A DNA stretch of 64,000 nt from Planctomycetota bacterium (GTDB taxonomy: Bacteria > Planctomycetota > MHYJ01 > JACQXL01 > JACRIJ01), in the NCBI GenBank assembly GCA_016220095.1, contig JACRIJ010000102.1, positions 233 through 64,232 of the forward strand. The letters run 5' to 3'. The translations under genes were made by a program, and so were the position numbers. Each line of letters begins with the position of its first letter. The stretch's first letter is position 1. This document shows positions 8,110-63,000 of the stretch, one piece after another. The notes beneath the pieces were generated by a model. It searched no databases. It was not told the DNA's origin and was given only the letters and a program-made list of their open reading frames with translations.

Positions 8110-10008
8110 TTATCTTGAGAACGGCAGCATCCTCAGATACACTTCCAGCGACAACGTCGCCATCGCCGTGGTATATACGCGGCTCTTCGCCCATTTCTCG
8201 TCCGCGGGGCTCCAACTGCCGTCCTCACAGCCCTGCGTGTCCATTATCGTGGTAAGAAATCCCGTCATCTGTTCATTCCAAAGGTCCCAGTATCCGCCGC
8301 CTAACTGGAACATCGCAAGGCTCGTCTGGTAAATATGATAAAAATTGACCTCTTCGCTCTTCCATTTGTCGTCTTTCAACACTATCTCAGCGCCGTTAAG
8401 CAGTACGGGTGAATCATTCCTCCAACCCATCAGTATCCTCGCAATTATTCCAACTGATGTTATCGTGGTTGAGCCCTGGCCGAAATCCCTGTATCCGACC
8501 TTGCCGGTAGAATTGTCTGTCATCCGGTCCAGCCATTCCGACGCGCCTTCAAAACCCTGTGCAGGCACGTCAAGGCCCGCAAGCCTGCCCGATTTAAGGG
8601 CGAATACCTGCCAACCGACTAACGACGTATCGTTGTCGTTGCAATTCGGCTTATAACGCCAGCCTAACCCAGGCGTCTGGGCCGATATGATAAAATCTAT
8701 GCCTTTCTGGGCCGGTTTTTTCAGCGTGGCATCTCTCGTCATACCGTATAATTCCGACAACGCGAGCGTTGCCATCGCCTGTTCAAACATGCTTATGTCG
8801 TTCGTATTCGGATTCACAAATGCGCCGTTCTTGTCCTGCACGTCCAATAACCACTTCACCGCCTTGTCTATCACGGACCTGAATTTTTCCCTCTGCTCTT
8901 TATCATCGTCCTTGTTCTTTTTATCCTCGTCCTTATCCTTGCCAACTTTTACCTTGTGCGTGTATCCGGCACCCAAGAAGCATAACAAAGAGAGGGATGT
9001 CGCGGTAACGTCATATTCCCCCTGTATGGAAGATTCATCATCTCTCGCGGGTCCCTGGCATTTGCCCATATAACCGTTAAAATCCCAATGGCCGTCTTTT
9101 TCCTGGTGCCTCATGAGCCAATTCAAAGATTTTTCAACTGCCTGCCTGCCGCGGGCATTGCCGTTGAACGCGCCCGCGGAACTCTCCTGGCCTTCTCCCG
9201 AACGCATTCCGTAATAACCAGAGGATTCGTCAAGATCCGTATCAAGTATCATAGCGGTTATGTTTTCCTCCGCCGTTTTCTGCACCTCGGTTTTGTCCTT
9301 CGCCTTTTTCGCGTTTTCCATCACGGATGCTATAGGCGGCCTTGAAAGGTATCCTTCAAATTCAGGCTTGTTTCCCTGCCACCAGGCCTGCATCTTCGCG
9401 AGGTCATAACCGAAATCCTGGCCCGTCATCTGCCACATTACGTATTGGATTTTCCATTTATAGAACTGGTCGGTCTGCACGGCGTATATGCCGACAAGCT
9501 TTTCCATTGTTTCTTCGTCCTTGAAACCGTCAAGCGTAAAAAGCGTGCCGATATTTTCCACGGCGCGCATTACCGTTGTCTGTTCTTTCGCGTCAAGCGC
9601 CTTGATAAGCTCCTGCCTGAGCGGTTCGCGCGACCCGAGCGCCACAAGCGCTCTGACCGCATAATACCTCAATGACGGCAATGAATACCTGCAGGCATGC
9701 TTCATGAGCGCCGGCGCCGCGGATTCGTCACCGATATTCTCAATCGCCCTGATGACCTCTACGGCCACATCAATGTCTTCATCATCAAGCAATTTAATGA
9801 GCTTCGGCACCGCTTCTTTGCATTTTATCCTGCCAAGCACCCTCGCGCATTCGGCCCTGATGCAACCGTCCTTTACGGACAATTTATCCATCAGCATCTG
9901 CGGGGTGATCTTTGACGGCTTTTTGCCTGCCGGCTCAGTGCGCGCGGATTGAAATGCAATTGCCAACATGAATACCACTGCCACAAAAATAAGAATTGCT
10001 TTTCTCAT
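8110..10008 (-). CDS. secreted HEAT-repeat protein fused to a prenyltransferase/squalene-cyclase-like alpha/alpha-toroid repeat domain
   Basis: 632-aa ORF with a signal peptide (MRKAILIFVAVVFMLAIAFQSA). N-terminal HEAT-like repeats include RAECARVLGRIKCKEAVPKLIKLLDDEDIDVAVEVIRAIENIG. The C-terminal repeats are of the type WLMRHQEKDGHW, WLLDVQDKNGAF, FIISAQTPGLGWRY with EQAMATLALSELYGMT, typical of the terpenoid-cyclase/prenyltransferase-like fold. RBS GGAGG lies upstream of the ATG. Confidence 0.7.
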   Translation of the reverse strand: MRKAILIFVAVVFMLAIAFQSARTEPAGKKPSKITPQMLMDKLSVKDGCIRAECARVLGRIKCKEAVPKLIKLLDDEDIDVAVEVIRAIENIGDESAAPALMKHACRYSLPSLRYYAVRALVALGSREPLRQELIKALDAKEQTTVMRAVENIGTLFTLDGFKDEETMEKLVGIYAVQTDQFYKWKIQYVMWQMTGQDFGYDLAKMQAWWQGNKPEFEGYLSRPPIASVMENAKKAKDKTEVQKTAEENITAMILDTDLDESSGYYGMRSGEGQESSAGAFNGNARGRQAVEKSLNWLMRHQEKDGHWDFNGYMGKCQGPARDDESSIQGEYDVTATSLSLLCFLGAGYTHKVKVGKDKDEDKKNKDDDKEQREKFRSVIDKAVKWLLDVQDKNGAFVNPNTNDISMFEQAMATLALSELYGMTRDATLKKPAQKGIDFIISAQTPGLGWRYKPNCNDNDTSLVGWQVFALKSGRLAGLDVPAQGFEGASEWLDRMTDNSTGKVGYRDFGQGSTTITSVGIIARILMGWRNDSPVLLNGAEIVLKDDKWKSEEVNFYHIYQTSLAMFQLGGGYWDLWNEQMTGFLTTIMDTQGCEDGSWSPADEKWAKSRVYTTAMATLSLEVYLRMLPFSR

Positions 10009-10104: not shown

Positions 10105-13100
10105 TTAATTTTTAATTCTCAGTTTATAAACTATCATTACAAACGCCAGGCACAGCGCAATCAATATAAACATACTGCCCCTGTTTTCCACAAGCCTGCT
10201 GACAATGCATTTTCCCGCGCCGCTTGAATTTGAACCCGTTGACTGCACAATAACCTCGCCGCCTTCAATCTCAACGCCCTCAAGCACCGTATCGGTCAAG
10301 GTCATCTTATTGCCGTACACGGGCGCGCCTGTAACCTGTATTGATGCTCCCGAAGAAGCGCCTACGGCATACAAGTTGCTGTTAATTGCCAGCGAGGCGC
10401 TGAAATTCGCATTATCCGCCGCTATGCCCGCGAAACTGTACGTCAACAGCCAGTAAGACGTCGTGCCCTTGGCAAGCGTCTTATTCAAATCCGCGAAAAT
10501 AACCGAACCGTTATCCGACTGGAATGTCTGCCGCGTGCCTATTTGAAGCTCGCCTTCATCCGCAACTCCGTCGCCGTCAGTGTCTTCAATAAGCCGCACG
10601 CCGAGCGTTTTGATGTCGTCATTCTCAATGCCGGTTCCCGACGATGTAAATGCTATCCAGCTGACATTAACGTCTTCCACGTCGCCGGCAATTATCGCCA
10701 GATGAAGCATGCCGGCATCGGGTTCGTTTTTGGCCAGCGATACCGCTGAAGGCATGTGCGGGCCTGAAGCCACGGCTATAGTGCCTTCATTGCTGACCGT
10801 CTTGGTGGCGCCCGCGACGGGATACTCGCCTACAATATACGCGGAAGACGAATCAGAAACTATCGTAACATTCAAACCCGATGAAGGTATAAGTTCAAGG
10901 GAAAATTGTTTGTCCAATTGCGCGTTGCCCGAAAACGCATAGCCTATCAGAAACGCCTTGGTTTCGCCGTCATTCAGGGTTTCATTTATCTGGTCAAAAA
11001 TTATTGCCCCGTTGTCAGCCGCAAATGTCTTGCTTTCGCCTATCTGGATATCTTCGGCATCAATAATGCCGTTATCATTGACGTCCTTGTAAAGACTGAC
11101 GGCGCTTATGTCAACAGATTCATCGCCCGTGCCGCTTGCGGCAAAGGCCATGGAATTTACCTGCAAAATATCGTCAGGGCATACGGCGGATATCTCCACC
11201 TGGAGCATTTCAACGTCTGTTGAGGCATTTGTAATATTGGATTCGTAAGGAGTATACTGCCCGGTCGCGACTGTAATGTAATTCGCGTTAAGCGGCAGGA
11301 CATTCAAGGTTACAGGAATAGTATACGGAGAATTTGACGCGGCGGCATCAACGACTATTATGCTCGCGGAATAAGGCGAATTTGCCGTTGAAAGCGACGA
11401 AGTATCAAACGAAATCGCTACGGTGTCTTTTTCCGTTGAAGCGCTTCCTTTATAGGTATCAAGCGAAATCCATGAGGCCGTATCCGAGGCAACCCAATTA
11501 AGCATTTTTCCGCCGGTATTGAAAATCTTGATTGATGCCGCGGTATCGTTTCCGTACAAAACCGAAATATCAAGGGCCTTCGGTTCCGTGGAAATTTCCG
11601 GCGGCGCCTGGCTTACAACATTAACTGTAACCGCAACGGTCTGCGGACTGTTTGACGCGTTGGACGCGGCTATGGAAAGCACAGCGGAATACGGAGAACC
11701 GGCCGCGGTAAATCCGGAAATACCAGGTGTAACGGTTATAGTGTCTATATCCGAACTGTTGTCGGAAGCGCCGCTTAGAGCGCCTAATTTGAGCCACGGC
11801 GGCGCGCCTGTAATATTCCAGTTAAGAGGCAGGCTTCCGCCCGAGGAATTCCATATCTGAAAGGATTGCGGAGAAGGGTCAGTGCTGTATTCCACTGCCG
11901 TGAACGTGAGCAGATTGGAGCCAAGCCCTATGACAGGCGGTTTGGCTGAAATATTGAACACGACGGTTACGGCCTTTGGCGTGCCGTAAGTAACGCCATC
12001 AGCGGTTATTGTAACGGACGTGGAATAATCGCCCGGCGTAAGCGAACCCACGGACGCGGTAAAGGATACCGTATCGGTCTCTATGGAAGTGCTTCCGCCT
12101 GACGGATTAACGGCAAGCCATGTCGCGGAATCTTCTTTTGCAACGGTCCAATTGAATGAGCCGGTGCTGGAATTCCAGATGCTTATGGTCTGAGTTGCCG
12201 GGTCAGCGCCGCCTTCGGTAGCGGTAAACTGCAGAAGACCGGGGTCAACGGTAAGTGAAGGAATTGTCTGCCCTGTTGCTTCGGTATAAGCGCTCGTCTC
12301 AACGTCTTCGGCATTTACGGCATATACGTAATACGTATGAGTACCGGTGACAGTATCGCTGGCAGTCGTAGGCGTAGAGTTATAAATAAGCGTACCGGAA
12401 CCCGAGATGCCGTCCCTGTAAACCTTATAATGGTGCTGTGCCCCGCCGCTCTGCCATGTAATAACTATATGGTCGCTATATGAAATACTGGCATCGGCGG
12501 AAATCGGGGTATTCGCAAACATGCATTTTGTAGAACTCGAACCTGACGCGTAATTATTGAAATTATCATAGGCCTTGACGCGGTAGTGGTATTGGGTATT
12601 TGCCTGCGGAGGAAATGCCGGGTTGTTAGTGGAATAGTCGGCCCATGAATTTGTCACTGAAGTGCCCACCTGAATATAAGTACCTGCGAAACCGCCGGAA
12701 TCCGGCGCGCGTTCAATAACATACTGATAAAGGCCCGACTCGGCATCCGTTGACGCCGCCCAAGCCAGGTCAACCCTATTTGGAGTAACCAGCGTCAATA
12801 CAGGGTCATTGGGCACCGGCGCGGGAGACGTGATATCAGAAGAACTCGTGCCTACGGTATCATTTCCAAAATTATCAACGGCCGTGACGCGGTAGTGATA
12901 TTTCGTATTAGCCTGCATGGGATCGGACGGGTTATTAACCGCGCTGTCCGTATAAGTATTGGTTACAGGCGAAGCAAGCTGTATCCAGATACCCGGGATA
13001 CCGCCGGAATCCGGCGCGCGTTCCAGAACATAAGGCGCAAGGCCTGACTGGGTATCAATTGCGGCGGTCCAGGTAACGGTAATCTGGCTTGCAGAACCGC

Positions 13101-16100
13101 CGGACAACACCGGCGAATTCGGCGTAGGCGAAGGCGCGGTAGTATCAACGGTATAAACCAGAGTCCAATCGCTGAGGGTGGGAGTAAATACATTTATCGT
13201 AGTAGAAAAATTCGCGCGAAGTTTAATCGCAGTTTCTGCCTGAACCGCAGGAATAGTATTGAGAACTGTACCTGAAACAACATTTGCCGACAATGTAGAA
13301 TCATCAGACGCCTTGAGCACATCAACGGTTATGGAAGTACCTGCAGGCCCGCCGTTTGAGGCGTCGGATTTTGTAAAAGTCAAAGCGCCCCACTGATAAA
13401 GTTTTACCGGCGCTATGGAAGGACCAACCATACTCCCGAAGGTAAGATATTCTGTTGGAATAATACTGGTGCTCGTTACAGTCGCTGTAGGATCTGCTAT
13501 TGCATATTTACGCCTATTGTAATGCGCGACAATTTCATTTGCCAAAAGCGCCCTGTTATATATACGGAATTCATCCATCCGCCCGGCAAATTTATAATTA
13601 GCATCGGTGGTCCAACCGCTTATCCTGGCCGTGGCCGAGACATTCCTGCTTAACGGCGCACCTTGTTTTTGCGATAGCGTCTGTGCCACGCCGTCTATGT
13701 ATAATGAATTACTTGTAACAGCGCCGTTATTAAATATCGCTACAACGTGCACCCACCTGTTCGCTAACCCGGTAGTGTTTATGCCGTACACATCGCTATT
13801 TGCGGTATTATATCCAAAAAAACCGGCTGACACCAACTGTAAATCATACGAAGACCATCCAAAAGGCATCCTGCCGCTGGCGCCATAAGTGCCGTCCCAG
13901 TACATCCAGAATTCAACGCTTGTCTTGGCATTGGCCGTAGCAGTATCAACGCCGGCGCAGTTAACGCTGACCGTATCATCGGTACCGTCAAAAGACATTG
14001 AATACCCCGATGGAAATCTTACATCACTTCTGCTGGCCCACTGGCCGCCGTCAGTGCCCTGCCAACCATAAGGCGAGGCAAAACTGCTCATCGTACCTAA
14101 ATTACCTTTTGTTGAGCCATCATAAACAGAAGTTCCCGCACCTTCGTCCATATGCCATAAGGCCACAAGCCCGGATTCGTCGTAATCTTTAGCGAAGGTT
14201 TTTCCAAAACTGCCTGTTGCCGCGGACGCGGGATTATTGTAGAACATGCAGATATATTTATCAACACTCGCGGGCAATGAATCCACCTTTATCCATATTT
14301 TGGTCGAAGCCGTATTTATGCCGGATTCTATCCAATGCGGATATACGATAGTCCATTTGGATCCGTCATAGTCATAAGTAAATGTAAACCTGATGTCAGA
14401 GCAGTCGGCATTCATATACCCCGACGAAATCAGGGTAGCCGTATTAATAGTAAAAGACACATGCTGATTTGTCAATATAGACGCGTTTGGATTTGTGATT
14501 CTTATTGTCGCGCCTCTGCTCCATACGCCAACCTTACCGGTGGCCCACGCAGTTTCTGTTCCGACGCCGGACACTATCGGCACCGTGGAAGCGAATTTTC
14601 TCACGCGAACCCAATCCCAATATGCGTCATAAGCCTGCCCGCCGTTCAAGTTATCATAACGGTACCCTAACGTTACAGGTTCAGAGTCTATTGAATTCGT
14701 ATAATCCTTCTGATACGCATTTGCCGTACCTTCCTGCTCCACTCTTTCATGGGCCGCATCGTTTCCTTCTTCCCATACCTTATAAAGACACCATGTATTT
14801 GAAACTGCAACAGGTGCAGGATTATAACTTGTCCAGGTTGAATCCACACGCGAATATAAAGTCGTAATATTTGTCGGTAAAAAACCGCCAAAGGCATTGG
14901 ATGTGGATACCCATGTGCCAAGCACCTCATAGCCATTCACAGGAAATGCCACGACTTTATGCCGTGATTCAGTAATAAAAGGCCCCGAATTAGTCTTGAT
15001 ACTGCGAAGCCTTCCCGTAGTGTTTGTGCCTCTCAGTATACCATCAGAAACGGTAAATCCTGTTGAATCATCTATCGTCCACTTGCCGGCATCAATGCCA
15101 GCGCCATTAAAATCATCATAGAAATCAAAAACCGCTCCGGCATTTCCAGCGTTAACAGCGGAAGAATTTCCATAGAAAATGTAAATTGTTGAAGTGCCCG
15201 CTGGAATGGATGGTATCCTTACCCAGAATGTCGCTTTATCGGCCGTTGTAAGGGTTTCCAGATAATAAGGATAAGTTTTTCCCGTAACATCGCCAAAACG
15301 CACATCACCAAAATCCTGCCTTGACCTGCTTTCCAAATTAACGTCTACGCCGACAGCGGAATTGTAACCGGTCTTAATCTGCATCTGAAAATTTGTCTGA
15401 GCACTGCCGGTATTGCTTATGGTTATGGATTTGTAGTACCCGAAACTAAGATTTTCCTGTTCGGCATATACGGTTGTTACGGGCTCAATAGCGGCGTACT
15501 GGCGTACGCGAACGTTGTCATAGCGCGTAGCCGCATTATAAGCGCCTATCATTAACCTGTCCGGCGTGCCGGATATAACCGCATCGGATTTTACGAGCAT
15601 GGGGCCTTCGTAGTAATCCGTGGCCGTGGCTGACTTATAAACTATCCTTAAGGTATTCCATTTGTTTATAGAAGGGGCGAGGCCACTGGACACCCACGCG
15701 GCTGAAGACCAGTATTGCCATACCGCAGTATTAATATCCATAGCCGCCACATAGTTAGTCGCAGAAGTTTCATTTCCCCAGACAACCGAGTCTCCGGTAT
15801 TGGATGTAAAATACACGTCACTTTCTATTATATAGGGCACTGCAGGCGTAAAAGATGCGGACATCCTGCCGCCCGCGGTACTGTATCCGTAACTGTAATT
15901 GCCCGCGGTCTTGTCGGTTTTCATCGCGAACGCTGTGCCGGAATTCAACGACCATCCTGTAGAATCGCCGTCCTCAAAATCATCAAAGAAATCAAATGTG
16001 CCTGAACCACTGCTTGCGTTTGTTGCAGAAGTATTGCCATAATACATATAGATCCGCGAAAGCCCAACAGGAACACTATCGGTGCCGGCTATCTTTACCC

Positions 16101-17616
16101 ATACAGAACCGTCCTTTTCCACCCAATGCGAAAGTACCGTACCATCGGACTTGGTAAAACGAAGGTCCGCGTAATTAGGCCTTGCCTTACTTTCATACAG
16201 CGCCTTGATTTCATCAGGAGAAAGCGCGCGGTTGTAAACGCGCACCTCGTCAAGTGAACCGTTATAATTACCATACACGGATGTTGCTACAGTCAAACCA
16301 TATTTCGTAGCAAGATAGGTTTCTACCCACTGCCTTTCAGAAGCAGTAAGAACTTTGTTATAAAGAACTACTTCTGCTATATCACCATTGGAATATTCAT
16401 TTCCATTAGGAATATAACCGCTCATAGAAAAACCATTTGGACCTGTTACGCCGTTCTGGTTTGCTATAATAGAAGTGCCATTTTCATAAAAATTTGAATT
16501 AGTTCCCGCACCTTGTATCGTAGCGCTATAAAGATAAAAAGACGTATCAGCGGCAATTGCGCTGTCATAAACCCATCCTTCAAAATATGCGTCTCTCCTT
16601 GTACCGCCGTGAACACCCAAAAGCCAATTATTAAACCTGCCGTTCAACATCCTGCTATTATTGCCGCCTGTCAAACGTTCAATGCAGAATACCGTTACCG
16701 GTGCCGGGAAATTTGTTGAAACCACCATTGTCTGGCTTGAAGCGGCCGTAAATCTTAATACTGGTTGTCCGTTAATCGCACCTGTCGTAAAAACAGGCTG
16801 CTGACTCGCGGTTGCCTGCACGGCATTATTTCCATTTCCGCTCTTATCATTCCACTGGGAAACCTTATAGGAACCGTCCATTGCAATACCATAGCTTGGG
16901 TCAAGCCATAACTTCAGATTGGCTGATAACGTACTGGTATTGGGCGGCAGAGGCGCTCTGCCGATATTCAGCGTTGTGCCGGAACGGAAGAAATACTTAT
17001 TGTTATAAGTCTGCTGTACTCCATTCACGTACTGCACGCCGTTGGATTCCGCATAATGATTCCAATTACCCGCGGGATCCTTTGCCCAAAAAGCGATGGA
17101 AAAAGAATCCGGACTCTGCGGCAATGTAATGGGAATATAGTCATCCGTACCGTCAAAAGTTACTGCGCCATTGTATTTGCCTGTGGTCCATGCCATGCCA
17201 GCACCATTGACGTTAGATGCGGAACCGTTACTGTTATTGCCTGAAGAATCGTATAAACCCGTCGTCGTGCCATTGGCAATATTACCGGTAGTCGCGTAAT
17301 CAAAATGCCAGCTCCCTATAAGGCCGGTTTCATCCAGTGTGGGATTGGTTATTTTTACCTGATAATTTGAAAGCGGGGATGCGTTTTTGTTGTCTATCGT
17401 TATAGCCTTGCGGTACGGCCAGTTTGCTTCCGTCCAGCTGGCTGTAACCGGAACGTCCGGCAATATTACCACGTCACTCGCGGTTTCCACGTTGGTTAAT
17501 GTGTTGCCGGAAAATTCCGTGCTCAAGGTCTGTGTCCACGTATCGGCAAAGAGGAGTGTGGCGAGGAGCGCCATCAGCAGGAAAACCGGAACTAAAGTGA
17601 TAATTCTTTTCATCAT
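10105..17616 (-). CDS. giant cell-surface protein (DUF2341-like x3, LamG/concanavalin-like x3, FN3-like x3, BACON/Ig-like x4, conserved C-terminal module, C-terminal TM anchor)
   Basis: The listed ORF is 2519 aa. The likely start is the ATGATG at 17616/17613, giving the signal peptide MMKRIITLVPVFLLMALLATLLFA. DUF2341-type segments: DLRFTKSDGTVLSHWVEKDGSVWVKI..IYMYYGN, DVRFGDVTGKTYPYYLE..FWVRIPSIPAGTSTIYIFYGN and DIRFTF..HWIESG..IWIKVDSLP..ICMFYNN. LamG-like segments end in DEVRVYNRALSPDEI and DEFRIYNRALLANEI. FN3-like units: YHYRVTAVDNFGN and YHYRVKAYDNFNN. The tail is ..GSNSSGAGKCIVSRLVENRGSMFILIALCLAFVMIVYKLRIKN. Confidence 0.85.
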   Translation of the reverse strand: MMKRIITLVPVFLLMALLATLLFADTWTQTLSTEFSGNTLTNVETASDVVILPDVPVTASWTEANWPYRKAITIDNKNASPLSNYQVKITNPTLDETGLIGSWHFDYATTGNIANGTTTGLYDSSGNNSNGSASNVNGAGMAWTTGKYNGAVTFDGTDDYIPITLPQSPDSFSIAFWAKDPAGNWNHYAESNGVQYVNGVQQTYNNKYFFRSGTTLNIGRAPLPPNTSTLSANLKLWLDPSYGIAMDGSYKVSQWNDKSGNGNNAVQATASQQPVFTTGAINGQPVLRFTAASSQTMVVSTNFPAPVTVFCIERLTGGNNSRMLNGRFNNWLLGVHGGTRRDAYFEGWVYDSAIAADTSFYLYSATIQGAGTNSNFYENGTSIIANQNGVTGPNGFSMSGYIPNGNEYSNGDIAEVVLYNKVLTASERQWVETYLATKYGLTVATSVYGNYNGSLDEVRVYNRALSPDEIKALYESKARPNYADLRFTKSDGTVLSHWVEKDGSVWVKIAGTDSVPVGLSRIYMYYGNTSATNASSGSGTFDFFDDFEDGDSTGWSLNSGTAFAMKTDKTAGNYSYGYSTAGGRMSASFTPAVPYIIESDVYFTSNTGDSVVWGNETSATNYVAAMDINTAVWQYWSSAAWVSSGLAPSINKWNTLRIVYKSATATDYYEGPMLVKSDAVISGTPDRLMIGAYNAATRYDNVRVRQYAAIEPVTTVYAEQENLSFGYYKSITISNTGSAQTNFQMQIKTGYNSAVGVDVNLESRSRQDFGDVRFGDVTGKTYPYYLETLTTADKATFWVRIPSIPAGTSTIYIFYGNSSAVNAGNAGAVFDFYDDFNGAGIDAGKWTIDDSTGFTVSDGILRGTNTTGRLRSIKTNSGPFITESRHKVVAFPVNGYEVLGTWVSTSNAFGGFLPTNITTLYSRVDSTWTSYNPAPVAVSNTWCLYKVWEEGNDAAHERVEQEGTANAYQKDYTNSIDSEPVTLGYRYDNLNGGQAYDAYWDWVRVRKFASTVPIVSGVGTETAWATGKVGVWSRGATIRITNPNASILTNQHVSFTINTATLISSGYMNADCSDIRFTFTYDYDGSKWTIVYPHWIESGINTASTKIWIKVDSLPASVDKYICMFYNNPASAATGSFGKTFAKDYDESGLVALWHMDEGAGTSVYDGSTKGNLGTMSSFASPYGWQGTDGGQWASRSDVRFPSGYSMSFDGTDDTVSVNCAGVDTATANAKTSVEFWMYWDGTYGASGRMPFGWSSYDLQLVSAGFFGYNTANSDVYGINTTGLANRWVHVVAIFNNGAVTSNSLYIDGVAQTLSQKQGAPLSRNVSATARISGWTTDANYKFAGRMDEFRIYNRALLANEIVAHYNRRKYAIADPTATVTSTSIIPTEYLTFGSMVGPSIAPVKLYQWGALTFTKSDASNGGPAGTSITVDVLKASDDSTLSANVVSGTVLNTIPAVQAETAIKLRANFSTTINVFTPTLSDWTLVYTVDTTAPSPTPNSPVLSGGSASQITVTWTAAIDTQSGLAPYVLERAPDSGGIPGIWIQLASPVTNTYTDSAVNNPSDPMQANTKYHYRVTAVDNFGNDTVGTSSSDITSPAPVPNDPVLTLVTPNRVDLAWAASTDAESGLYQYVIERAPDSGGFAGTYIQVGTSVTNSWADYSTNNPAFPPQANTQYHYRVKAYDNFNNYASGSSSTKCMFANTPISADASISYSDHIVITWQSGGAQHHYKVYRDGISGSGTLIYNSTPTTASDTVTGTHTYYVYAVNAEDVETSAYTEATGQTIPSLTVDPGLLQFTATEGGADPATQTISIWNSSTGSFNWTVAKEDSATWLAVNPSGGSTSIETDTVSFTASVGSLTPGDYSTSVTITADGVTYGTPKAVTVVFNISAKPPVIGLGSNLLTFTAVEYSTDPSPQSFQIWNSSGGSLPLNWNITGAPPWLKLGALSGASDNSSDIDTITVTPGISGFTAAGSPYSAVLSIAASNASNSPQTVAVTVNVVSQAPPEISTEPKALDISVLYGNDTAASIKIFNTGGKMLNWVASDTASWISLDTYKGSASTEKDTVAISFDTSSLSTANSPYSASIIVVDAAASNSPYTIPVTLNVLPLNANYITVATGQYTPYESNITNASTDVEMLQVEISAVCPDDILQVNSMAFAASGTGDESVDISAVSLYKDVNDNGIIDAEDIQIGESKTFAADNGAIIFDQINETLNDGETKAFLIGYAFSGNAQLDKQFSLELIPSSGLNVTIVSDSSSAYIVGEYPVAGATKTVSNEGTIAVASGPHMPSAVSLAKNEPDAGMLHLAIIAGDVEDVNVSWIAFTSSGTGIENDDIKTLGVRLIEDTDGDGVADEGELQIGTRQTFQSDNGSVIFADLNKTLAKGTTSYWLLTYSFAGIAADNANFSASLAINSNLYAVGASSGASIQVTGAPVYGNKMTLTDTVLEGVEIEGGEVIVQSTGSNSSGAGKCIVSRLVENRGSMFILIALCLAFVMIVYKLRIKN

Positions 17617-25828: not shown

Positions 25829-26134
25829 AAGAACAGGAATATTAGCCGAAAACCCGATATTAGTCAAGAAAAAACGGGTAATTACTGCCTCAGTGAAGGT
25901 GGGGCTATATGCTAAAGACAACCGAAACTTTGACTGTTTGTTTTTTTTAATCTTTCACCCCTTCGGGGTATGAAATTTTTATTTCTTGTTTAGCATAAAT
26001 GAGGAATGTCAACCCTGAAAGGATGGCAGATTTGAATCGTCACTGCCTGCCGCAGTCCTGATTAAATGTTATATTGAGTGAAAAATTGAGAATGCAAAAC
26101 TATCAGTTTAATCTGTTGTTAAAAACGAATTTAT

Positions 26135-26163
26135 TTGACTTTTTTGGTAAAACCATATATATT
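26135..26163 (+). promoter_or_regulatory. sigma70-type promoter (TTGACT - 17 nt - TATATT) upstream of the acsD-like gene
   Basis: ttgact at 26135-26140 and tatatt at 26158-26163. RBS AGGAG and the ATG at 26224 follow. Confidence 0.45.
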
Positions 26164-26223
26164 TTTCATCTTACCGTGCCTTATCAAGAAAAACGAAATA
26201 TTTCACAAAAAAGGAGCCAAGCT

Positions 26224-27189
26224 ATGCCAGTACAAAAAGTTTTAGAAAAATGGTCTATACCGGTAAATGAAGTAACCATAGGCGCTACCAAAGAACAAGG
26301 CGGTACGCGTTCAAGGGCAATCAAGATAGGCGGCGAGGACTGCCTGCCTTTCATGTCCGATGAAGGCAAAATACCCAATCCGCCGGTTATCGCCATGGAA
26401 GTCACTGACATGAAACCCGAGAACTGGCCCGCGCCGCTTGAGGCAATCTACAAAGATGTCTGGAACGACCCAGTCAAATGGGCGCAGAGATGCGAAAAGG
26501 AATTCGGCGCGGACATCATATTGCTTAAATTGTCGTCATGCCATCCGGACAATAAAAACACTTCGCCCGCGGATGCCGCGGCTATCGTAAAGGCCATCAA
26601 GCAGAGCGTCTCCCTGCCGCTCATCGTATGGGGCAGTGAGGTTCCTGAAAAAGATAACCTCGTAATGCCGGAAGTCAGCCAGGTATTGAAAGGCGAAAAA
26701 GCAATCCTCGGCATAGCCGAACAGGACAACTATAAAACACTCACCGGCACCTGCATCGCGGACGGCCATAACATACTCACAATGGCGCCGCTTGACGTAA
26801 ACATCGGCAAACAGGTAAATATACTCGTCACCGATATGGGCATGTCAGCTGAAAATATCGTACAGTGGCAGACCACAGGCGCGCTGGGATACGGTTTTGA
26901 ATACTGCTATTCCGCGCAGGAACGCATAAGACTGGCAGGCCTCGGCGGCGATAAGCTCCTCGCCATTCCCCTGCTGGCAACCTGCGGCTGGGAATCGTGG
27001 AAGGCCAAAGAAGCCAAATCCCCTGAAGCGGAATTCCCCCACTGGGGCCCTGCTAAGGAAAGAGGCATTGCGTGGGAATTCTCCACAGCAACAGGCATGC
27101 TCTTGTCCGGCGCGAACATCGTCTCACTCCTGCATCCCGAATCGGTAAAGCTCGTCAGAAGATTCATTAATACCATGCTGGCGAAATAG
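26224..27189 (+). CDS. acsD: CO dehydrogenase/acetyl-CoA synthase delta subunit-like protein (corrinoid Fe-S protein small subunit, AcsD/CdhD family)
   Basis: From MPVQKVLEKW (RBS aaaggag upstream), the sequence GATKEQGGTRSRAIKIGGE..LPF, PVIAMEV.D, WAQRCEKEFGADIILLKL, AEQDNYKTLTG, PLDVNIGKQVNIL, GYGFEY and ERIRLAGL runs closely parallel to Moorella AcsD as I recall it. The listed upstream extension from 26074 is AT-rich and contains the promoter-like motif. Confidence 0.75.
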   Translation: MPVQKVLEKWSIPVNEVTIGATKEQGGTRSRAIKIGGEDCLPFMSDEGKIPNPPVIAMEVTDMKPENWPAPLEAIYKDVWNDPVKWAQRCEKEFGADIILLKLSSCHPDNKNTSPADAAAIVKAIKQSVSLPLIVWGSEVPEKDNLVMPEVSQVLKGEKAILGIAEQDNYKTLTGTCIADGHNILTMAPLDVNIGKQVNILVTDMGMSAENIVQWQTTGALGYGFEYCYSAQERIRLAGLGGDKLLAIPLLATCGWESWKAKEAKSPEAEFPHWGPAKERGIAWEFSTATGMLLSGANIVSLLHPESVKLVRRFINTMLAK

Positions 27190-33561: not shown

Positions 33562-34176
33562 TTATATCCCGCCGGTAAACATTACTGCCATCATAATAAC
33601 CATTCCGATGCCGCCAATTACTATCCACGCAGACGTGTTAGACTGCCCGTCCGAATGTCCTGCTCCGTCCGGAGAAGGCGAAACATTTTTAACAACGGTC
33701 ATTGTTACCGAATCGTCATTTTCAAGCAATACCCTGACCGTTATTTCATAAGAGCCGGCGGATTCAAATATATGTTTCAATTCGTAAATGCCGGCTTCAG
33801 GAGACGTTACTGCCTGGAGTTCAACCTCCTGGCCATGCCCGGCATGTTCTGAAAAAACCTGGTTTTGCGGTTTTATTTGAAAGAATACTTTTGCGCCGGA
33901 AATGCGCGCCCCGGTCTGCTTGTTTTTTAATTCAACAGACAACGCCGTTTCCGCTCCAGCCGCAAGCCCTGATGTTTTCAAAGATACTGACGCATCATTC
34001 GCGGTCATTTCGTCCACTGACACAGAAGGCGCACTGCTTTCATGGCCGCCGTGTCCGGAGTCATGCGGCGGCATACCGCACATGCCGCCGTCTCCGTGGC
34101 CCATCCCCATCATTGAACAGCCGGCTAATGCCGCAATAACGAATCCTGACAAAACCAATTTCTCTGCTGATTGCAT
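33562..34176 (-). CDS. Met/His-rich lipoprotein with FixH/YtkA-like beta-sandwich and C-terminal TM helix (putative periplasmic metal-binding protein)
   Basis: Lipobox LAGC, then MMGMGHGDGGMCGMPPHDSGHGGHE. The central segment (LSVELKNKQTGARISGAKVFFQI ... GIYELKHIFESAGSYEITVRV) resembles YtkA/FixH-type domains. The C-terminal helix is WIVIGGIGMVIMMAVMF. Confidence 0.6.
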   Translation of the reverse strand: MQSAEKLVLSGFVIAALAGCSMMGMGHGDGGMCGMPPHDSGHGGHESSAPSVSVDEMTANDASVSLKTSGLAAGAETALSVELKNKQTGARISGAKVFFQIKPQNQVFSEHAGHGQEVELQAVTSPEAGIYELKHIFESAGSYEITVRVLLENDDSVTMTVVKNVSPSPDGAGHSDGQSNTSAWIVIGGIGMVIMMAVMFTGGI

Positions 34177-34198
34177 AGCGCCATAATCCTTTCAATAA

Positions 34199-35110
34199 TT
34201 ATTTACAGCAATCGCATCCGGCCTCTTGGCCCGGCTCCATTTTCATGCCGCCGTCGTGTTTATGGCCGCCGCCATCCTTATGTTCTCCAGGCTTATTGTC
34301 CTTATGGCCGTCATGGCCGTCATGGCCGTCTTTCTTTTCTGCCGGCGCATCCCACTTCTGCAATTCGCCGCACTTAATCATTGAAGAGCCGAAATAGGGA
34401 TTTGCGGGCTCCTTAGAGTCCTGGATCCAGCTTCCGGGCGCCATATCGCAATGAAACATGGAATATTTATCCTTATCGGAAACAAAGTTTTTTGTAAATT
34501 CTATGACCGCGTCGCTCAGGCCCTTGAATGATTCGCGGACTGTTTTTATATCAAGCTGTTTCTTGACGAGGTCCATGCCGCATATCGGGCATTTACCGGC
34601 CGCGTCCTTTTTCACCTGGGGGTGCATTGAACACGTATATTCGGTTTTGACCATGCTATCGGCCGAGGATTTGATTTTAGCGGAATTTTTCACAAAATTG
34701 TCCAGTTTATCCTTATCCAGGGAAGACGGCGCAAGCTTGGCAAGCACGTCTGCGTTTGCGCTGATTTTTGCGGCATTTGCCTGGACGTCGGCAACGGAAT
34801 CCTTCGCAAGGGCCTTCTGGATTCCGAGGTAACCGGCAAGCGCCTTGTTAAAGTAGAACGCGTAATCATCCGACATGGCCTTGAAATACTTTTCAGGGTC
34901 TTTCTGGAAATCAGCCTGGCATTCCTTCATGCAGAAATAAAACGTAATGTCTTTGTAAACCTCGGATGCGGCTATTTGTTCCTTACCGAATTCGCCTTCA
35001 TCGGAACATAAATAGCATTTATAGGTTTCCCCGCCGGCAAAAGCCGTATTGCCCGAGAAAGCAAGCCAGAGCGTCAAAAAACACGCAACACCAATAATGA
35101 ACCTGTTCAT
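34199..35110 (-). CDS. periplasmic heavy-metal-binding protein (YHS/TRASH-like Cys motif + HMBD CxMHP..CPxCGM + DUF3347-like region + His-rich, CDCC tail)
   Basis: The start is at MNRFIIGVACFL (RBS AGGAGG). It contains CYLCSDEG...FYFCMKEC, CSMHPQVKKDAAGKCPICGMDL (the motif also present in the CusB-like protein here) and FHCDMAPGSWIQ..NPYFGSSMIKCGE (DUF3347-like). The tail is HDGHDGHKDNKPGEHKDGGGHKHDGG...GCDCCK. Confidence 0.75.
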   Translation of the reverse strand: MNRFIIGVACFLTLWLAFSGNTAFAGGETYKCYLCSDEGEFGKEQIAASEVYKDITFYFCMKECQADFQKDPEKYFKAMSDDYAFYFNKALAGYLGIQKALAKDSVADVQANAAKISANADVLAKLAPSSLDKDKLDNFVKNSAKIKSSADSMVKTEYTCSMHPQVKKDAAGKCPICGMDLVKKQLDIKTVRESFKGLSDAVIEFTKNFVSDKDKYSMFHCDMAPGSWIQDSKEPANPYFGSSMIKCGELQKWDAPAEKKDGHDGHDGHKDNKPGEHKDGGGHKHDGGMKMEPGQEAGCDCCK

Positions 35111-35210
35111 ACGATAAACCTCCTGAAAAAATCCCATTGCAAATCAACTGCGCTGATTCGCTGTCATTATTAAAACGTACAAGGCGGCGAATTTATTCAT
35201 GCCAATGGGC

Positions 35211-37060: not shown

Positions 37061-38785
37061 TCACGGCCAGATGTGTCTCCTCTGTATCGTTATCTCCATT
37101 ATCCTGCGCAATGCCGCCTTGGGGTTTTTGAATTTTCTGAACCTTTCCTGATAGGCGTAAAAAAACCTCAGCCTGTCCGCCCTGGATATCATTCCGGGAA
37201 TGCTCGCGTTAAGCTGGGCAAGATTTTTTATAACCTGCCCTTCAGACAGCTCGCGGCAGAAATCCACCCTGTCAAGATCAAGCCAATGCATCTTCGCGTT
37301 TCCTATATCCTCGGCCTTTTGCACAAGGATATTATTGGCTTTCATGTCATAATGAAATACGCCCTTGCTGTGGATATCCCTGACAAATTCCATCAAATGC
37401 ATGACAAATTGTTTCTTCGCGATGTAGAAGTCCCGGCCGGCAAAATGCCTTGAATAGTTCTCCACTATGAACTGGCTCAAAGGCAATGCGTTAGGAACCT
37501 CGTATGATATAAGGCATCCTGTCGTGATAAAAGGCATGAATTTTTTTTCAACCAGGCCGATGCACAGCGGAGTCGGAAGGTTCCTAAGCCGGAATCCCTC
37601 GGCCGCAACCCACGCGGATTTTGCCCTGTGCATCCTTAGGAAATTTTTAACAAGCACCTGCGAAAAAGTGTAAATGTATTCTTTCACATAAATCCTGCCT
37701 TTTTCCGGGAAATCCTCCAGGTTTATCCTGGAAAGCGCTCTTTTAAAGGTGTTTTTTTCAAGTTTCATCGGGGCATTGTCTTTTATATGGTCATGTTTTT
37801 CAACGTGCCGGAGTACCGCGCGCGGATCGGTGCCCCGGCGCGTATATATATTGTACCCGATGCTTTTTATCACGGTAAAACCCGTAGAATTCTTAAGAAC
37901 CCTGTTCATACGGCTTATAAGGTGTTCATGCCTTATTTCTTTTGCCTTTTTTATGACTTGACGGCTGAAATCCCTGATTTTTTTCGCGTCCAAACCGTCC
38001 TGCCCGTCCGCCTTAAAATCAGGATTCAAGGCGCAGAATTTTTTCATGAAATGCCAGCACAGCGTAAACGGCGCCACTGTGTTCAACGAATATACAAGAT
38101 GCGCTATATTATAAACGGCCATTCCCCTGTTCAATTTTTCAATCTTTTGCGCCCTGTGCAGGTCCGAAATGAAGAGCTCACAGCGCCCTTCCGCGGATTC
38201 TTTTATAAGTATGTTGCCGATATGGAAATCCCTGTGGTAAAACCCTTTTGAAATAAAAAGATTCACAAACGCCGCCGCGTCATCAATTATCTTTACTGCC
38301 GTTTTCCAGCCGGGTTTTATTTCGGTGAAAAAGTCCTTAAGGCTCATGGCGCCGGGAATGTTTTTCAAGAACAGACGCGCTGTTTCGGTGTACAATCCGT
38401 TGCCTTTTTCAATCACGCCGACGGGCTCCGGAGCGGAAACGCCGTCCGCGGCAAGCAGGAGCAGGTTATGGAATTCCTGCACGGCCTTGGATTTTTCAAA
38501 AACAAACCTTACCTGCTGGAAAAAATCAGGCTGTTTAAAATGCTTCACGAAAAAAGAACCCGTACCGGGCACGTTAAGGAAAAAAAGGCTCCTCGCGGAA
38601 TTTTCCCGGAGACCTTTCTGTTCCCACGCGGAAGGCATTTTGGCTTCACCGGCGAGTTCTTTCAGATAATCGCAAAAGAACTTCTCATGCGCAAGCGTCG
38701 TATAAACGGCGTAATCGCCGTCTTTTATCCTGACGGCGTCAATAAAGCCAGCGCCATTCTTAATTTTATATGTTTGTTTTTGCAT
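37061..38785 (-). CDS. tandem two-domain lipopolysaccharide kinase (Kdo/WaaP/InaA family)
   Basis: 574-aa ORF with two kinase-like halves, each carrying the family catalytic motif (HRDFHIGNILIK and HYDMKANNILVQ, followed by DLH / DLDRV). It lies at the end of the LPS-core glycosyltransferase cluster. Confidence 0.7.
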   Translation of the reverse strand: MQKQTYKIKNGAGFIDAVRIKDGDYAVYTTLAHEKFFCDYLKELAGEAKMPSAWEQKGLRENSARSLFFLNVPGTGSFFVKHFKQPDFFQQVRFVFEKSKAVQEFHNLLLLAADGVSAPEPVGVIEKGNGLYTETARLFLKNIPGAMSLKDFFTEIKPGWKTAVKIIDDAAAFVNLFISKGFYHRDFHIGNILIKESAEGRCELFISDLHRAQKIEKLNRGMAVYNIAHLVYSLNTVAPFTLCWHFMKKFCALNPDFKADGQDGLDAKKIRDFSRQVIKKAKEIRHEHLISRMNRVLKNSTGFTVIKSIGYNIYTRRGTDPRAVLRHVEKHDHIKDNAPMKLEKNTFKRALSRINLEDFPEKGRIYVKEYIYTFSQVLVKNFLRMHRAKSAWVAAEGFRLRNLPTPLCIGLVEKKFMPFITTGCLISYEVPNALPLSQFIVENYSRHFAGRDFYIAKKQFVMHLMEFVRDIHSKGVFHYDMKANNILVQKAEDIGNAKMHWLDLDRVDFCRELSEGQVIKNLAQLNASIPGMISRADRLRFFYAYQERFRKFKNPKAALRRIMEITIQRRHIWP

Positions 38786-38843
38786 GTAGTCTCTAAATTC
38801 TCAACTCCCTATAACTCCGTAACTCCTTAACCCCTTAAACTCT

Positions 38844-39998: not shown

Positions 39999-40143
39999 AA
40001 CGAATCAGAAACAACGATATATGCCGCGAAAATTCGCAGTATCGCTAAAAGCTCGCAGTATCCTGCATCCGCAGGATCGCTACTGCTCGTTGGAAACGCC
40101 GATATTCGTGCCTTCGTGGCAAAAAAAGTTGAGAACTTTAATA

Positions 40144-40905: not shown

Positions 40906-40915
40906 ATCTCTAATC

Positions 40916-43404: not shown

Positions 43405-43450
43405 ACACGAAGACGGTTTAACAGGCAATTAAAATACATACATTTATTTA

Positions 43451-51077: not shown

Positions 51078-51097
51078 AAACATACAAGGAGTTTGAT

Positions 51098-52381: not shown

Positions 52382-52393
52382 ATAAGGACATTT

Positions 52394-60031: not shown

Positions 60032-63000
60032 TTAGTATTTGTTTAGAGTTTCGGATTTCGAATTTAGAGTTTTCAATAGCATTCCTATAAGAATAACTGT
60101 TGCTAACATAGTATATATATAGTTTGCGTTGGAATTGCCTGTCTTTGTTATAAAGCATCCGCCGCCGCCTTTGCCGCCCCCTCCGCTCTCTACCGCGCCC
60201 GCGCCTCCGGATAACGTTGGATCTCCTATTACTGCTTCTTCCCCTGTCAACGGCACCCCCGATACCTGCAGTATCTTTCCGGAATCCCTGCCTCTGACCG
60301 TTATGTCTATGTTCGTGTCAACCGCCACCCAGAATGTGTCCCCGTCTTTAGCATTGCCTGAAAAATTGTACACCAATATCCAATCCGTGCTCCCGCTCGC
60401 CGCTATAGTTTCTAACGGCGTATTGAACGTTATCACGCCATTGTCTTCCGAATAATGGTAATTGTACAGACCTACCGCCTCTTCTCCATAATCGTACGCG
60501 CCATTCTTGTTGACGTCTCTTATCATCTTCACGCCACCCGGTAATATCGCACTCTTCTCGTTGCCCGTACCCCCGCTGTGTACGTATACCTTCTCTATCT
60601 CAAGGGCCTCTACACTGCTTGCCTCTAAATTCATGCTCAACATCGCTACATTGCCCTGATTGTTCAATACGGTCTTTTTCAATTTGTCCTTATTTGCTCC
60701 TAATACCGTAAGAGTGCCTACACTGCTTATCACCTTGGCCTTGCCTTGTATCGGAAATTCGCCCGTAACCACTATCGGCTGATGCGTGGCTTCGTCCGTG
60801 CCCGTTATGTCGTACTTCGTACTTACCTCGGCGCCGAATGTGCTCCCGTCAAACGCGTTGCCATTCATATTGTACACTACTATAAGATTTATATCTGAAT
60901 TTGCCGGCAACATGTATTCCAACCCGTCAAATTCCACGTTTCCATTGTCCGCGTTATAATTTTCACCTCCTGCTAATTCGCTATCCGGCCCACCAATCTT
61001 TCCGTTTTCGTCAGCATCTATATATAACCTGATTCCATTGTCTTCTAAATCCGCGGCTTCATTGCCGTATCCCGTACCGGTTATCTTCAGGGAATTCATG
61101 TTTATATCTACTGAACTCGTAGTCAGATTCAATTGCAGCATTACGATTCCTTTACCACTGCGGCTCTCGGTCGTAGACATGGGATTACGCTCACCTTCGG
61201 ATACGGTTATTACGCCCGGCACGACTTTTACGTCCTGCTGTGCATCTATCCAGCTATTGTCAGGGCTCTCATATACCGTTACGGTAGAAACACCAAACTG
61301 CGCATCCGTATAATAGAACGACAACCGGCTCGTATTAGCCTGCATAACTATAATATTCACCATCCACGGACCGTCCTGCTTAACGGCGAATTTGCCGTCC
61401 GGCGAACTGCTCGCCAACATCAGCATCGTGCTTGCCGTAAGTACGGATTCGTTTTGATACGCGTCCTGCGACATTACGGTCATCGTGTCAGTAACCGTGC
61501 CTACGCCTATTGCCTGCTCCTGCGAAATGAATTTCAATTGCGCCACGGGCCCCGGGACGATCGTCACGAACTGTGTAATATCTGTCCAGCCCTTGTCAGG
61601 CGCCTCCGCAAAGCTCATTGTATATTGACCAGTCTTTGTATCGGAATAGTAAAAACTTATAGAATCGTTTCCTGCAGGTATTGTAATCGCAGTCATATTG
61701 AACGGCCCCGCGGTTGTCTCTGCAAAACCGCCTGCTATAGAGGTCGTTGTTACTGAAATAGACGTATTTTCTGGGACTGCGAGCGCAAAGCCCTTCTTAT
61801 GCCGGGTCTGCAGAATTATCGCATCCGATACACTGCCTGCGGCTATCTGCTGTTGTGTTGTAGTAACTGCGAGCGTGCTTATTATCCACGGATAGACTGT
61901 TACAGTTTGAGAGGCATCGGTCCAGTTGCGGGACGGGCTTTCACTTACTGCTATCGTCCAACTGCCGATTTCTTCATCATAGTAATAAAAGCTTATGAAA
62001 CTCGTATTAGCCGACATTGTTACGTACGCAGAGTCAAACGGCGCTATATTGTCAGTGCCAAATGAACCGGTTGTTGACGTAGTTGACAGATTAAGCTGAG
62101 TATCTTCTGTAGTATTGGATACGTTATTGAATTCGTCATAGGTCTGGATTGTCATAACGGCTGAGGGCAGGTATTCGCCCATGTTCTGCGCAGACGTTAC
62201 GAATGCCATTTTCGCAACAGGCGCGGGATTGACGATTTCGTCCTGAAAGGCGTCCAGCCAGCCTGCCTCAGGCGCTTCACGCGCCGAGATTGTAACAAGG
62301 CCTGCGAGCGTATCGCTATAGTAGAAATCAGCCGAAGAATTTCCGGCAGTCAGGGTGACCAGAGTGGCAGACCACGGCCCTTCGGAACTCAGGCCGAATG
62401 CGCCTGCCGATGATGTGCTAATGAATTCGATGCTCGTATCAACCTCTGCCGGGCTGGGATTCTCAAACTGGTCTCTTGTCTGTATGGTAATTACATCCGA
62501 GGCAACACCTGCAATAAGAGTTTGCGGGCTGGTAATGAATACTATCTGCGAGCTAACTGCCGGATTGATGGTGATATCCTGGGCGCCGTCCTGCCAATTA
62601 AGACCTGTGATTTCGTGCATAGTAAGCGTATGGGTACCCATCAGGGTATCGCGATAGAAGAAGGTGGTATTATTGGTGCCGGTGTAAACTATAATGCTCG
62701 ATAGGTCCCACGGGCCGGCATCGGCCAAACCAAACGTGCCTGCTGACGACGTAGAGCTCAAAGTAACTTCCACGTACTGGGAGGCGTTGGAAATATTGCC
62801 ATAGGCATCGGTAGTCTGGGCAATCATAGCTGATGAAGATTCGCCGGCTATAATTGTTTGCGCGACAGAGGTGAAAGAGACCTTAGCGACAGGGCCTGCG
62901 AGCACGGTTTGCGCCTGGACTGCGTCCGACCAGTTAAGGTTTGGGAATTCAGAGCAGGTGATTTGCGGCGCACCGGCAAGGGTATCCTGATAATAGAACG

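Follow-up and report, generated by a model that had tools for sequence, protein, structure and literature searches.

Cysteine-containing C-terminal tails and a 164-residue beta-sandwich repeat in two giant proteins of a Planctomycetota bacterium

The stretch of DNA analysed here (hereafter the window, 64,000 nucleotides of contig JACRIJ010000102.1 from a Planctomycetota bacterium) carries two genes for giant proteins, W1 and W2, which end in the same manner, with two copies of a repeat domain of about 164 amino acids (aa) followed by a Gly-rich or Gly/Ser-rich linker, a Cys, a transmembrane (TM) helix and a short basic end. The exact W1 product is on record from an NCBI genome contig (65,160 nt), and its N-terminus is a typical Sec signal peptide. 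The features of the two genes are given below; repeats were detected with a hidden Markov model (HMM), and W2 residue numbers count from nt 64000, the edge of the window.

10105..17616, minus strand: W1, a secreted giant protein of 2503 aa with N-terminal signal peptide MMKRIITLVPVFLLMALLATLLFA, three DUF2341, three Laminin_G_3 and two BACON_2 domains, followed by two copies of the 164-aa repeat and by the tail
10786..11280, minus strand: W1 repeat copy 1, aa 2113-2277 (iterated HMM, domain E 6e-43)
10288..10785, minus strand: W1 repeat copy 2, aa 2278-2443 (HMM; AlphaFold2 model all-beta, pLDDT 98; DxDxDG-like loop LIEDTDGDGVADEGE)
10210..10287, minus strand: W1 linker, turning Gly/Ser-rich, VLEGVEIEGGEVIVQSTGSNSSGAGK
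10207..10209, minus strand: W1 signature Cys, aa 2470, followed by IVSR (C-LISR in the ortholog P0030)
10126..10173, minus strand: W1 TM helix MFILIALCLAFVMIVY, 11 residues past the Cys
10108..10125, minus strand: W1 basic cytoplasmic end KLRIKN (stop codon 10105-10107)
60032..>64000, minus strand: W2, a giant protein running past the window edge at its 5' end, with at least 8 tandem repeats of ~111 aa, then two 164-aa repeats and the tail
60719..61216, minus strand: W2 repeat copy 1, aa 929-1094 (HMM, domain E 6e-46)
60221..60718, minus strand: W2 repeat copy 2, aa 1095-1260 (HMM, domain E 1e-43)
60158..60220, minus strand: W2 Gly-rich linker PTLSGGAGAVESGGGGKGGGG
60155..60157, minus strand: W2 signature Cys, within GKGGGG-C-FIT (score against sort_motif_CFI, NF041763: 13.0 bits, under the cutoff of 15.9)
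60074..60118, minus strand: W2 TM helix IYTMLATVILIGMLL, 12 residues past the Cys
60035..60073, minus strand: W2 Lys-rich cytoplasmic end KTLNSKSETLNKY (stop codon 60032-60034)

BLASTP aligns the C-terminal ~430 aa of W1 with those of W2 at 135 bits (E=5e-40; 379 aa aligned, 27% of them identical), whereas the regions upstream (2109 aa of W1 against 929 aa of W2) are unrelated, the best match having E=1.1. The original prediction for this locus, namely that the two proteins share the layout of their last ~393 aa below unrelated upstream parts, is therefore upheld, the similarity being clearly significant in a real alignment. The tail layout that it described is likewise present in both proteins. 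W1 ends in ...SNSSGAGK-C-IVSRLVENRGS-MFILIALCLAFVMIVY-KLRIKN and W2 in ...GGGGKGGGG-C-FITKTGNSNANY-IYTMLATVILIGMLL-KTLNSKSETLNKY, so that both have, at the extreme C-terminus, the succession of a Cys motif, a TM helix and a basic cluster that defines the architectural class of tripartite sorting signals. Neither helix contains a charged residue or a Pro, and only 4 of the 1322 residues of W2 are Cys. P0030, an ortholog of W1, shows 81% identity over the whole protein, with 91% across the two domains and 77% over the tail, and it retains the Cys as C-LISR, in line with the expectation that it would be conserved in orthologs.

Several further observations concern the rest of these two genes. W1 and P0030 are 72-95% identical lengthwise, but only 29-38% at W1 aa 801-1000 (window ~14617-15216), which form a local hypervariable stretch within an otherwise conserved giant protein. 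Upstream of its 164-aa repeats W2 has no Pfam or NCBIfam match; this region (window 61217-64000, minus strand) contains the ~111-aa repeats, with the consensus FYYxDTxAGxxTIxxxExPxxxWxDAxQxxTIxPxxxxKLVFTTxxQTLxAGxxSxxMxVQxQD... A word-indexed homolog search with the C-terminal 789 aa of W2 recovered relatives of the ~111-aa repeat only, none of them with the 164-aa domain or the tail; neither that domain nor the Cys tail is present in three such relatives (P0164, P0165 and P0166, from NCBI/ENA/JGI). A 25-nt direct repeat (2.0 copies, 87% match, window 60017-60065) spans the W2 stop codon and is mirrored by an echo, 'TLNSKSE / TLNKY', in the cytoplasmic end of the protein. It therefore seems that the 3' end of the gene was remodelled by a small tandem duplication.

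The 164-residue repeat

An HMM of 164 positions was built from the four W1 and W2 copies and then iterated on their relatives. It detects the four copies at domain E-values of about 1e-43 to 1e-46 and sets the unit at 164-166 aa, so that the two domains per protein of the original prediction are found and their proposed size of ~155 aa is not. Pairwise identity among the four copies is 25-36%, the two copies of W1 being closer to each other (36%) than any W1 copy is to any W2 copy (25-29%). There is thus no conserved two-domain module but simply tandem copies of a common repeat.

This repeat is widespread. A profile search of 1.84 billion representative proteins returned 1855 at E<=1e-3, 950 at E<=1e-10 and 330 at E<=1e-30, and most of the 1855 carry no tail of the W1/W2 type. 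The idea that the last ~393 aa constitute a conserved, lineage-specific stalk module has accordingly been abandoned. When the best 150 relatives were scanned together with W1 and W2 using the local HMM, 976 domain copies were found in these 152 proteins, with up to 29 in a single protein. Other searches were far less productive: a word-indexed homolog search with the two-repeat region of W1 matched P0001 alone, scans of genome and metagenome contigs with narrow back-translated patterns gave 6 and 5 loci only (no close relative among them), and a PDB sequence search with the two-repeat region gave nothing meaningful.

No Pfam or NCBIfam model describes the repeat, and no single copy reaches the threshold of any. 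GEVED (PF20009) is seen below threshold in 7/79 copies (best E 1.8e-4), and BNR_assoc_N (PF14873) weakly in 4/79, reaching 26.6 bits when summed over the 20 copies of P0004. AlphaFold2, run on W1 copy 2 with an alignment of 79 sequences, gives an all-beta sandwich with pLDDT 98 and pTM 0.92. In comparison with the PDB by Foldseek this model has only distant matches (TM-scores 0.35-0.57, identity 8-15%), the best being cohesins (6kgf, 4ums, 2zf9), the N-terminal domain of Bacteroides GH33 sialidases (9db6, 4fj6, 4bbw) and TTHA1873. The repeat is thus a beta-sandwich like cohesin, BNR_assoc_N and GEVED, which provide the best structural and the weak sequence matches, but it differs from all three by a signature of its own (GTG...LYxDxNxxGxxDxxD...DNGxxxF) and by its occurrence in long tandem arrays. 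The repeat is, in sum, a large, uncatalogued beta-sandwich family that is cohesin/BNR_assoc_N-like.

A long loop of W1 copy 2, LIEDTDGDGVADEGE, holds the near-invariant D...G of the consensus LYxDxNxxGxxDxxD and weakly matches TSP3_bac. This loop, of the DxDxDG type, probably binds calcium. In W1 and W2 the repeats most likely act as a spacer or stalk, as suggested by the long tandem arrays of the family and by their membrane-proximal position.

Tails of relatives, known sorting signals and a local motif

The ends of W1 and W2 were compared with those of the best 150 relatives, no two of which belong to one 50%-identity cluster. About 40 of these relatives have a Cys-TM-basic tail, with the end of the protein 42-62 aa past the last domain copy, and in a few more the tail lies 75-137 residues beyond it. 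Among the short TM+basic tails examined, a Cys precedes the helix core in 46/46 and does so by 4-19 aa in 44/46, the outliers being P0001 (whose second Cys is 10 aa further upstream) and P0141. The residue before the Cys is G or S in 32/46, and the Cys lies a median of 34.5 residues from the end of the protein. The background frequency of Cys in the rest of the tail-bearing proteins is 0.41%. Judging from these sequences, the Cys of the short tails is not incidental, since it is kept in P0030 and in all 46 short tails against a background of ~0.4%.

As for the tails themselves, relatives of W1 and W2 carry a variety of devices at this position. A type IX secretion system (T9SS) type A C-terminal domain (CTD; TIGR04183) scores above cutoff in 6/10 relatives' ends tested. 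MYXO-CTERM (TIGR03901) matches 15/49 tails at E up to 10 (best 5.4e-7), the tail of P0008 exceeding the cutoff (22.8 vs 20 bits). JDVT-CTERM-like matches occur in 6 relatives' tails, a Synerg-CTERM match in 1, and a full CFI-box-CTERM in 2 (P0035 and P0139; best E 1.3e-22). A protein of a Planctomycetota metagenome-assembled genome (L005) combines the 164-aa domain with '...GSGGCAMQTT...-TM-RSRRS'. A different form is seen in P0084, P0119 and P0133, where a Cys-less TM anchor is followed by a long cytoplasmic tail. The Cys box is also found away from the 164-aa domain, after an fn3 domain in P0090 and 132-137 aa past the last copy in four relatives. This swapping of anchors, with different sorting devices at the same position in one domain family, makes the W1/W2 tail look like a sorting or anchoring device as well.

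A separate tail subfamily is apparent among the relatives. Directly after the last 164-aa domain its members carry '[LV]-x-G-S-S-G-[KR]-x(3-6)-C-x-x-S', with a TM helix some 10 aa further on and then RRR. They are P0001, P0025, P0027, P0043, P0057, P0060, P0068, P0070, P0081, P0089, P0098, P0107 and P0128. A local HMM of these tails recovers all seed members at 1e-8 to 1e-21, and three of them (P0128, P0060 and P0001), scanned singly, have no NCBIfam CTERM match. This subfamily looks like another unmodelled CTERM family of the Cys type.

To place the W1/W2 tail among known signals, CTERM models were scanned against full proteins, 51-60-aa tails and trimmed tails of 40-45 aa at E<=10, with the P0008 tail (22.8 bits) as positive control. 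A Cys-containing tripartite class has been described together with its CPBP enzymes, and MYXO-CTERM, which belongs to it, has been reported only in Myxococcota and Bradymonadales; for such signals, lipidation of the Cys and cleavage by intramembrane proteases of the CPBP/Rce1 family are predicted (Haft 2023, doi 10.1101/2023.06.07.544157). For MYXO-CTERM, experiments have demonstrated Cys-dependent cleavage by MrtX, a CPBP protease, as well as surface display: mutants without MrtX lose the outer-membrane exchange that TraA mediates, and co-expression of MrtX in E. coli gives cleavage (Guo et al. 2025, PMC11980579).

MYXO-CTERM (myxosortases MrtX/MrtC/MrtP, CPBP family, core model NF040914; export requires type II secretion, T2SS) shares with the W1/W2 tail the extreme C-terminal position, a Gly-preceded Cys, a TM helix without charge or Pro and a short basic end, and is found, as here, on large secreted surface proteins of diderm bacteria. 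The W1/W2 tail differs in its single Cys (not GCGC), the CaaX-like residues that follow it, a longer polar spacer and a Lys- rather than Arg-rich end, and its composition is unlike that of the Ala/Gly/Arg-rich MYXO-CTERM tails; the MYXO-CTERM cutoff of 20 bits is not reached, W1 and W2 giving no match at all. With JDVT-, Synerg- and CGP-CTERM, for which cleavage by CPBP-family enzymes is predicted (doi 10.1101/2023.06.07.544157), the W1/W2 tail shares its one invariant Cys, followed by TM helix and basic end. Here too there is no HMM match to either protein. The nearly invariant DP before the Leu-rich helix of JDVT-CTERM (NF033191) is absent from W1 and W2, and no CPBP gene (MrtJ) adjoins them; the invariant Pro in the Leu-rich helix of Synerg-CTERM (TIGR04564) is missing from both helices; and where CGP-CTERM (TIGR04288), a signal of Thermococcales, has an invariant GP just past the Cys, W1 and W2 have IV or FI. 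A relative from a sister sample, P0088, scores 12 bits against CGP-CTERM (cutoff 21), on a different segment. GlyGly-CTERM (TIGR03501; rhombosortase), whose Gly-Gly motif adjoins the TM helix, has no HMM match, the poly-Gly of W2 preceding the Cys and lying at least 13 residues from the helix, and no rhomboid gene was seen among the scanned open reading frames of the window. The motifs of PEP-CTERM, LPXTG and PGF-CTERM are absent from both tails, with no HMM matches.

The nearest approach to a curated model is found in W2, where NF041763, a CFI-box putative sorting motif with a cutoff of 15.9, gives 'GKGGGGCFIT' 13.0 bits (E=0.065) over positions 2-11 of its 14. The relative P0032 scores 15.1 bits, also below cutoff, and W1 has no match. 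The likeness lies in the poly-Gly followed by C-F-I-T in W2 and in the C-F-I-K, C-F-V-K and C-F-V-N of lineage relatives. CFI-box-CTERM itself (NF041770, 69 positions) matches neither W1 nor W2, a synthetic consensus used as control giving 7e-36. Unlike that family, W1 and W2 are without the 69-aa body (CFIATAAYGS...LRxFRDxxL...YYxxSPPxAD), their TM helix coming ~11 residues past the Cys box and then the end of the protein. A full-text literature search on 'CFI-box' found no paper, so the function of the CFI box is known only as a database label. Neither W1 nor W2 reaches the cutoff of a curated model, W2 falling just under that of NF041763.

A JGI sequence (Ga0156236_111; L013 8306-11455) with one 164-aa domain ends in AACLITRILQSQMARWAAACRTIRDRFLDSAPGRVFVSLYYEG ('AACLITRIL...RDRFL...LYY') and matches CFI_box_CTERM weakly (21 bits vs cutoff 40). 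Its C-L-I-T-R resembles the C-I-V-S-R of W1 and the C-F-I-T-K of W2, which hints that the CFI box and the W1/W2 tails are related.

Lineage relatives of W1 and W2 come from two Logan samples, SRR12113407, which holds contigs identical to parts of the window, and its sister sample SRR22387810. P0115 (SRR12113407, 400 aa) has two domain copies followed by 'RQY-C-FVNRLSGPAEVLYG-TM-ATRT' (box C-FVNR), on a contig whose tetranucleotide correlation with the window (r=0.93) exceeds that of two contigs with window-identical genes. P0088 (SRR22387810) has DUF2341, two domain copies and 'ATY-C-VIKAMAPDKGPAA-TM-YSKNRK' (box C-VIKA). These two proteins are likely paralogs in the W1/W2 lineage. The W1 ortholog P0030 (SRR22387810, contig L014) has downstream of it the same HEAT/prenyltransferase-like gene as W1 has in the window. 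P0090 (SRR12113407, 2088 aa, PKD + fn3; L018 288-6554) ends in 'GKG-C-FVKQLYSD' and a stop, 676 aa past the last 164-aa copy, and P0116 (SRR22387810; L017 953-4255) ends in 'KA-C-FIKTILRKNEK' at a real stop.

Together with W1, W2 and P0030, these four proteins share a local signature, C-[FILV]-[IV]-[STNK]-[RKAT], preceded by G, S or K. In the last ~60 residues of W1 and W2 the dialect can be written [G/S-rich]-C-[FILV]-[IV]-x-[KR], with about 10 polar residues, a TM helix and a short basic end behind it. It is this local dialect alone, seen by no curated HMM, that is specific to the lineage. The signature resembles the eukaryotic/archaeal CaaX box, in which a Cys is followed by two aliphatic or aromatic residues and one variable residue, as in C-IVS, C-LIS, C-FIT, C-FVN, C-VIK and C-FIK here; Rce1-type CPBP proteases cleave this pattern just behind the Cys when that residue carries a lipid. 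The apparent likeness is a pattern spotted by eye in about 8 sequences. Unlike a CaaX box, the box here is internal, with 33-40 residues following that include the TM helix, and the proteins carrying it are exported, not cytosolic.

Interpretation of the tail and its alternatives

The gene content of the window bears on the cell envelope in which these proteins are found. Lipopolysaccharide (LPS) core genes lie at 37061-41980, and four further groups are present: CdhD-like (CO dehydrogenase/acetyl-CoA synthase delta; 26074-27189), ResB/CcsA (system II cytochrome c maturation; 42205-44365), TolC/HlyD/RND efflux (49746-55717; read from the end sequences of open reading frames only) and YtkA/HMBD metal-binding proteins (33562-35137). 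An outer membrane is therefore expected from the LPS-core and TolC/RND genes, and the set as a whole suggests an anaerobic diderm. Other neighbouring genes code for HEAT/prenyltransferase-like, Ser/Thr kinase and VWA proteins. The first of these (8110-10008, minus strand), 97 nt downstream of W1, encodes a secreted protein of 632 aa with HEAT repeats and weak matches to squalene-hopene-cyclase/prenyltransferase-like alpha-toroids. A link of this protein to lipid modification of the tail Cys would be pure speculation.

W1 and W2 are best explained as Sec-exported giant surface proteins of a diderm bacterium. Their tail we take, with moderate confidence, to be a lineage variant, divergent and uncatalogued, of the Cys-type sorting/anchoring signals of the MYXO-CTERM class. 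Of the sorting tag originally proposed, the tripartite layout and the non-incidental Cys thus remain, but not its novelty as a kind of signal, as it falls in the Cys-containing tripartite class already described (Haft 2023); by the same token, lineage specificity holds for the dialect and not for the class of tag. According to this model, W1 and W2 would be exported by the Sec pathway, with the TM helix and the basic end keeping them in the inner membrane. The Cys would then be modified, probably lipidated, and an intramembrane endopeptidase would cut just past it. The protein could finally be transferred to the cell surface and retained there via the modified Cys. The endopeptidase, whose identity we infer with less confidence than the sorting signal itself, would most likely be of the CPBP/Rce1 type (myxosortase-like), since the CaaX-like residues following the Cys fit such a cleavage.

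A number of results weigh against the assignment to this class. W1 and W2 match none of the MYXO, JDVT, Synerg, CGP, GlyGly, PEP and CFI_box_CTERM models, even with trimmed tails, and their basic ends are Lys-rich and weak (KTLNSK... in W2), unlike the Arg clusters of the described families. They are also ruled out as members of the 'LVGSSG-x-C' tail subfamily (13-16 relatives), the HMM of which gives W2 8.3 bits and W1 nothing. P0116 and P0090 end 8-13 residues past the Cys box with no TM helix in any frame, and the tripartite model leaves both unexplained; they may be real variants, decayed tails or assembly errors. All tail-bearing proteins confirmed in the lineage other than P0090 also hold the 164-aa domain, so the independence of tag and domain within this genome rests on little. 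Finally, no CPBP, rhomboid, exosortase or sortase gene is found among the scanned open reading frames of the window, nor among the called neighbours of P0030, P0088, P0115, P0116, P0090, P0128 and P0060. This local absence of an enzyme is uninformative, because housekeeping myxosortases, too, are encoded away from their targets (doi 10.1101/2023.06.07.544157). A PDZ protein encoded beside P0115 has PDZ-domain matches only and no protease-domain match in the PDB.

The tail could alternatively be a plain stop-transfer anchor, W1 and W2 being uncleaved type I inner-membrane proteins in which the Cys serves for a disulfide, a metal contact or nothing. A signal peptide with a C-terminal TM helix and a basic end is what any type I membrane protein has, no sorting-signal HMM matches W1 or W2, no sorting enzyme gene is nearby, and the Cys-less anchors of P0084, P0119 and P0133 show that simple anchoring exists in the domain family. 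We nevertheless regard such an anchor as unlikely. A Cys before the helix in every one of the 46 short tails, from separate 50%-identity clusters and against a background of 0.4%, is hard to explain without a function, and domains proven to sort proteins to the surface (T9SS CTD, MYXO-CTERM) take this position in relatives. The Cys-less anchors, moreover, differ in form by their long cytoplasmic tails, and in a diderm an adhesin-like protein of 2500 aa with its tether in the inner membrane would be confined beneath the outer membrane.

That the tail is a real sorting signal belonging to the CFI-box (NF041763/NF041770) or some other system, with an enzyme other than a CPBP/Rce1 protease (of unknown type, rhombosortase-like or exosortase-like), also seems rather improbable. 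The scores of W2 and P0032 against NF041763, the full CFI_box_CTERM of P0035 and P0139, the weak one of L013 with its C-L-I-T-R, and the TM-less P0116 and P0090, which suggest that the Cys box and not the TM helix is recognised, all point in this direction. Yet W2 and P0032 remain below the curated cutoff, W1, P0030, P0115 and P0088 have no match, the CFI_box_CTERM body (YYxxSPPxAD) is missing from W1 and W2, and, full-text search having found no paper on the CFI box, there is no enzyme or mechanism with which to compare.

In W1, W2, P0115 and P0088 the dialect box precedes a TM+basic end, in P0090 and P0116 it forms a bare end of 8-13 residues, and the domains before it differ. A more daring proposal, to which we give a rather small chance, is that this uncultured diderm lineage has a C-terminal Cys-box system of its own, [G/S]n-C-[FILV]-[IV]-x-[K/R], a bacterial counterpart of CaaX on exported proteins, in which the box and not the TM helix would be recognised. 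If this were true, the Cys-box system would represent a new sorting-signal family with a new lipidation/protease pair, attached to a large uncatalogued family of 164-aa repeats.

Chance or compositional likeness between two unrelated low-complexity ends, which could be invoked as W1 and W2 have few tail identities beyond the Cys and a G at each of positions -4 and -2, and as alignment tools misalign the tails, is effectively refuted by the alignment of the flanking domains at E=5e-40, the equal order and spacing of elements (Cys to TM 11 vs 12 residues), the conservative matching of positions +1 to +4 (IVSR / FITK) and the recurrence of the layout in 46 relatives.

The reading of the W1/W2 tail as a divergent Cys-type signal places it in a class that is already known, and for which a myxosortase was validated experimentally in 2025, so that the gain is incremental. 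Cys-type tails appear to reach many proteins that the curated models miss. In the repeat family about 40 of the best 150 relatives have one, a large share of these escaping every NCBIfam CTERM model, and the CaaX-like local motif would fit the proposed cleavage of the CPBP/Rce1 type. As a by-product, the 164-aa repeat emerges as a very large, confidently folding family, with 1855 representative clusters and as many as 29 copies in one protein, for which a Pfam or NCBIfam model would be worthwhile. Which proteins appear on the surface of a bacterium is decided by short C-terminal sorting tags, and new dialects of such tags tend to indicate a dedicated processing enzyme.

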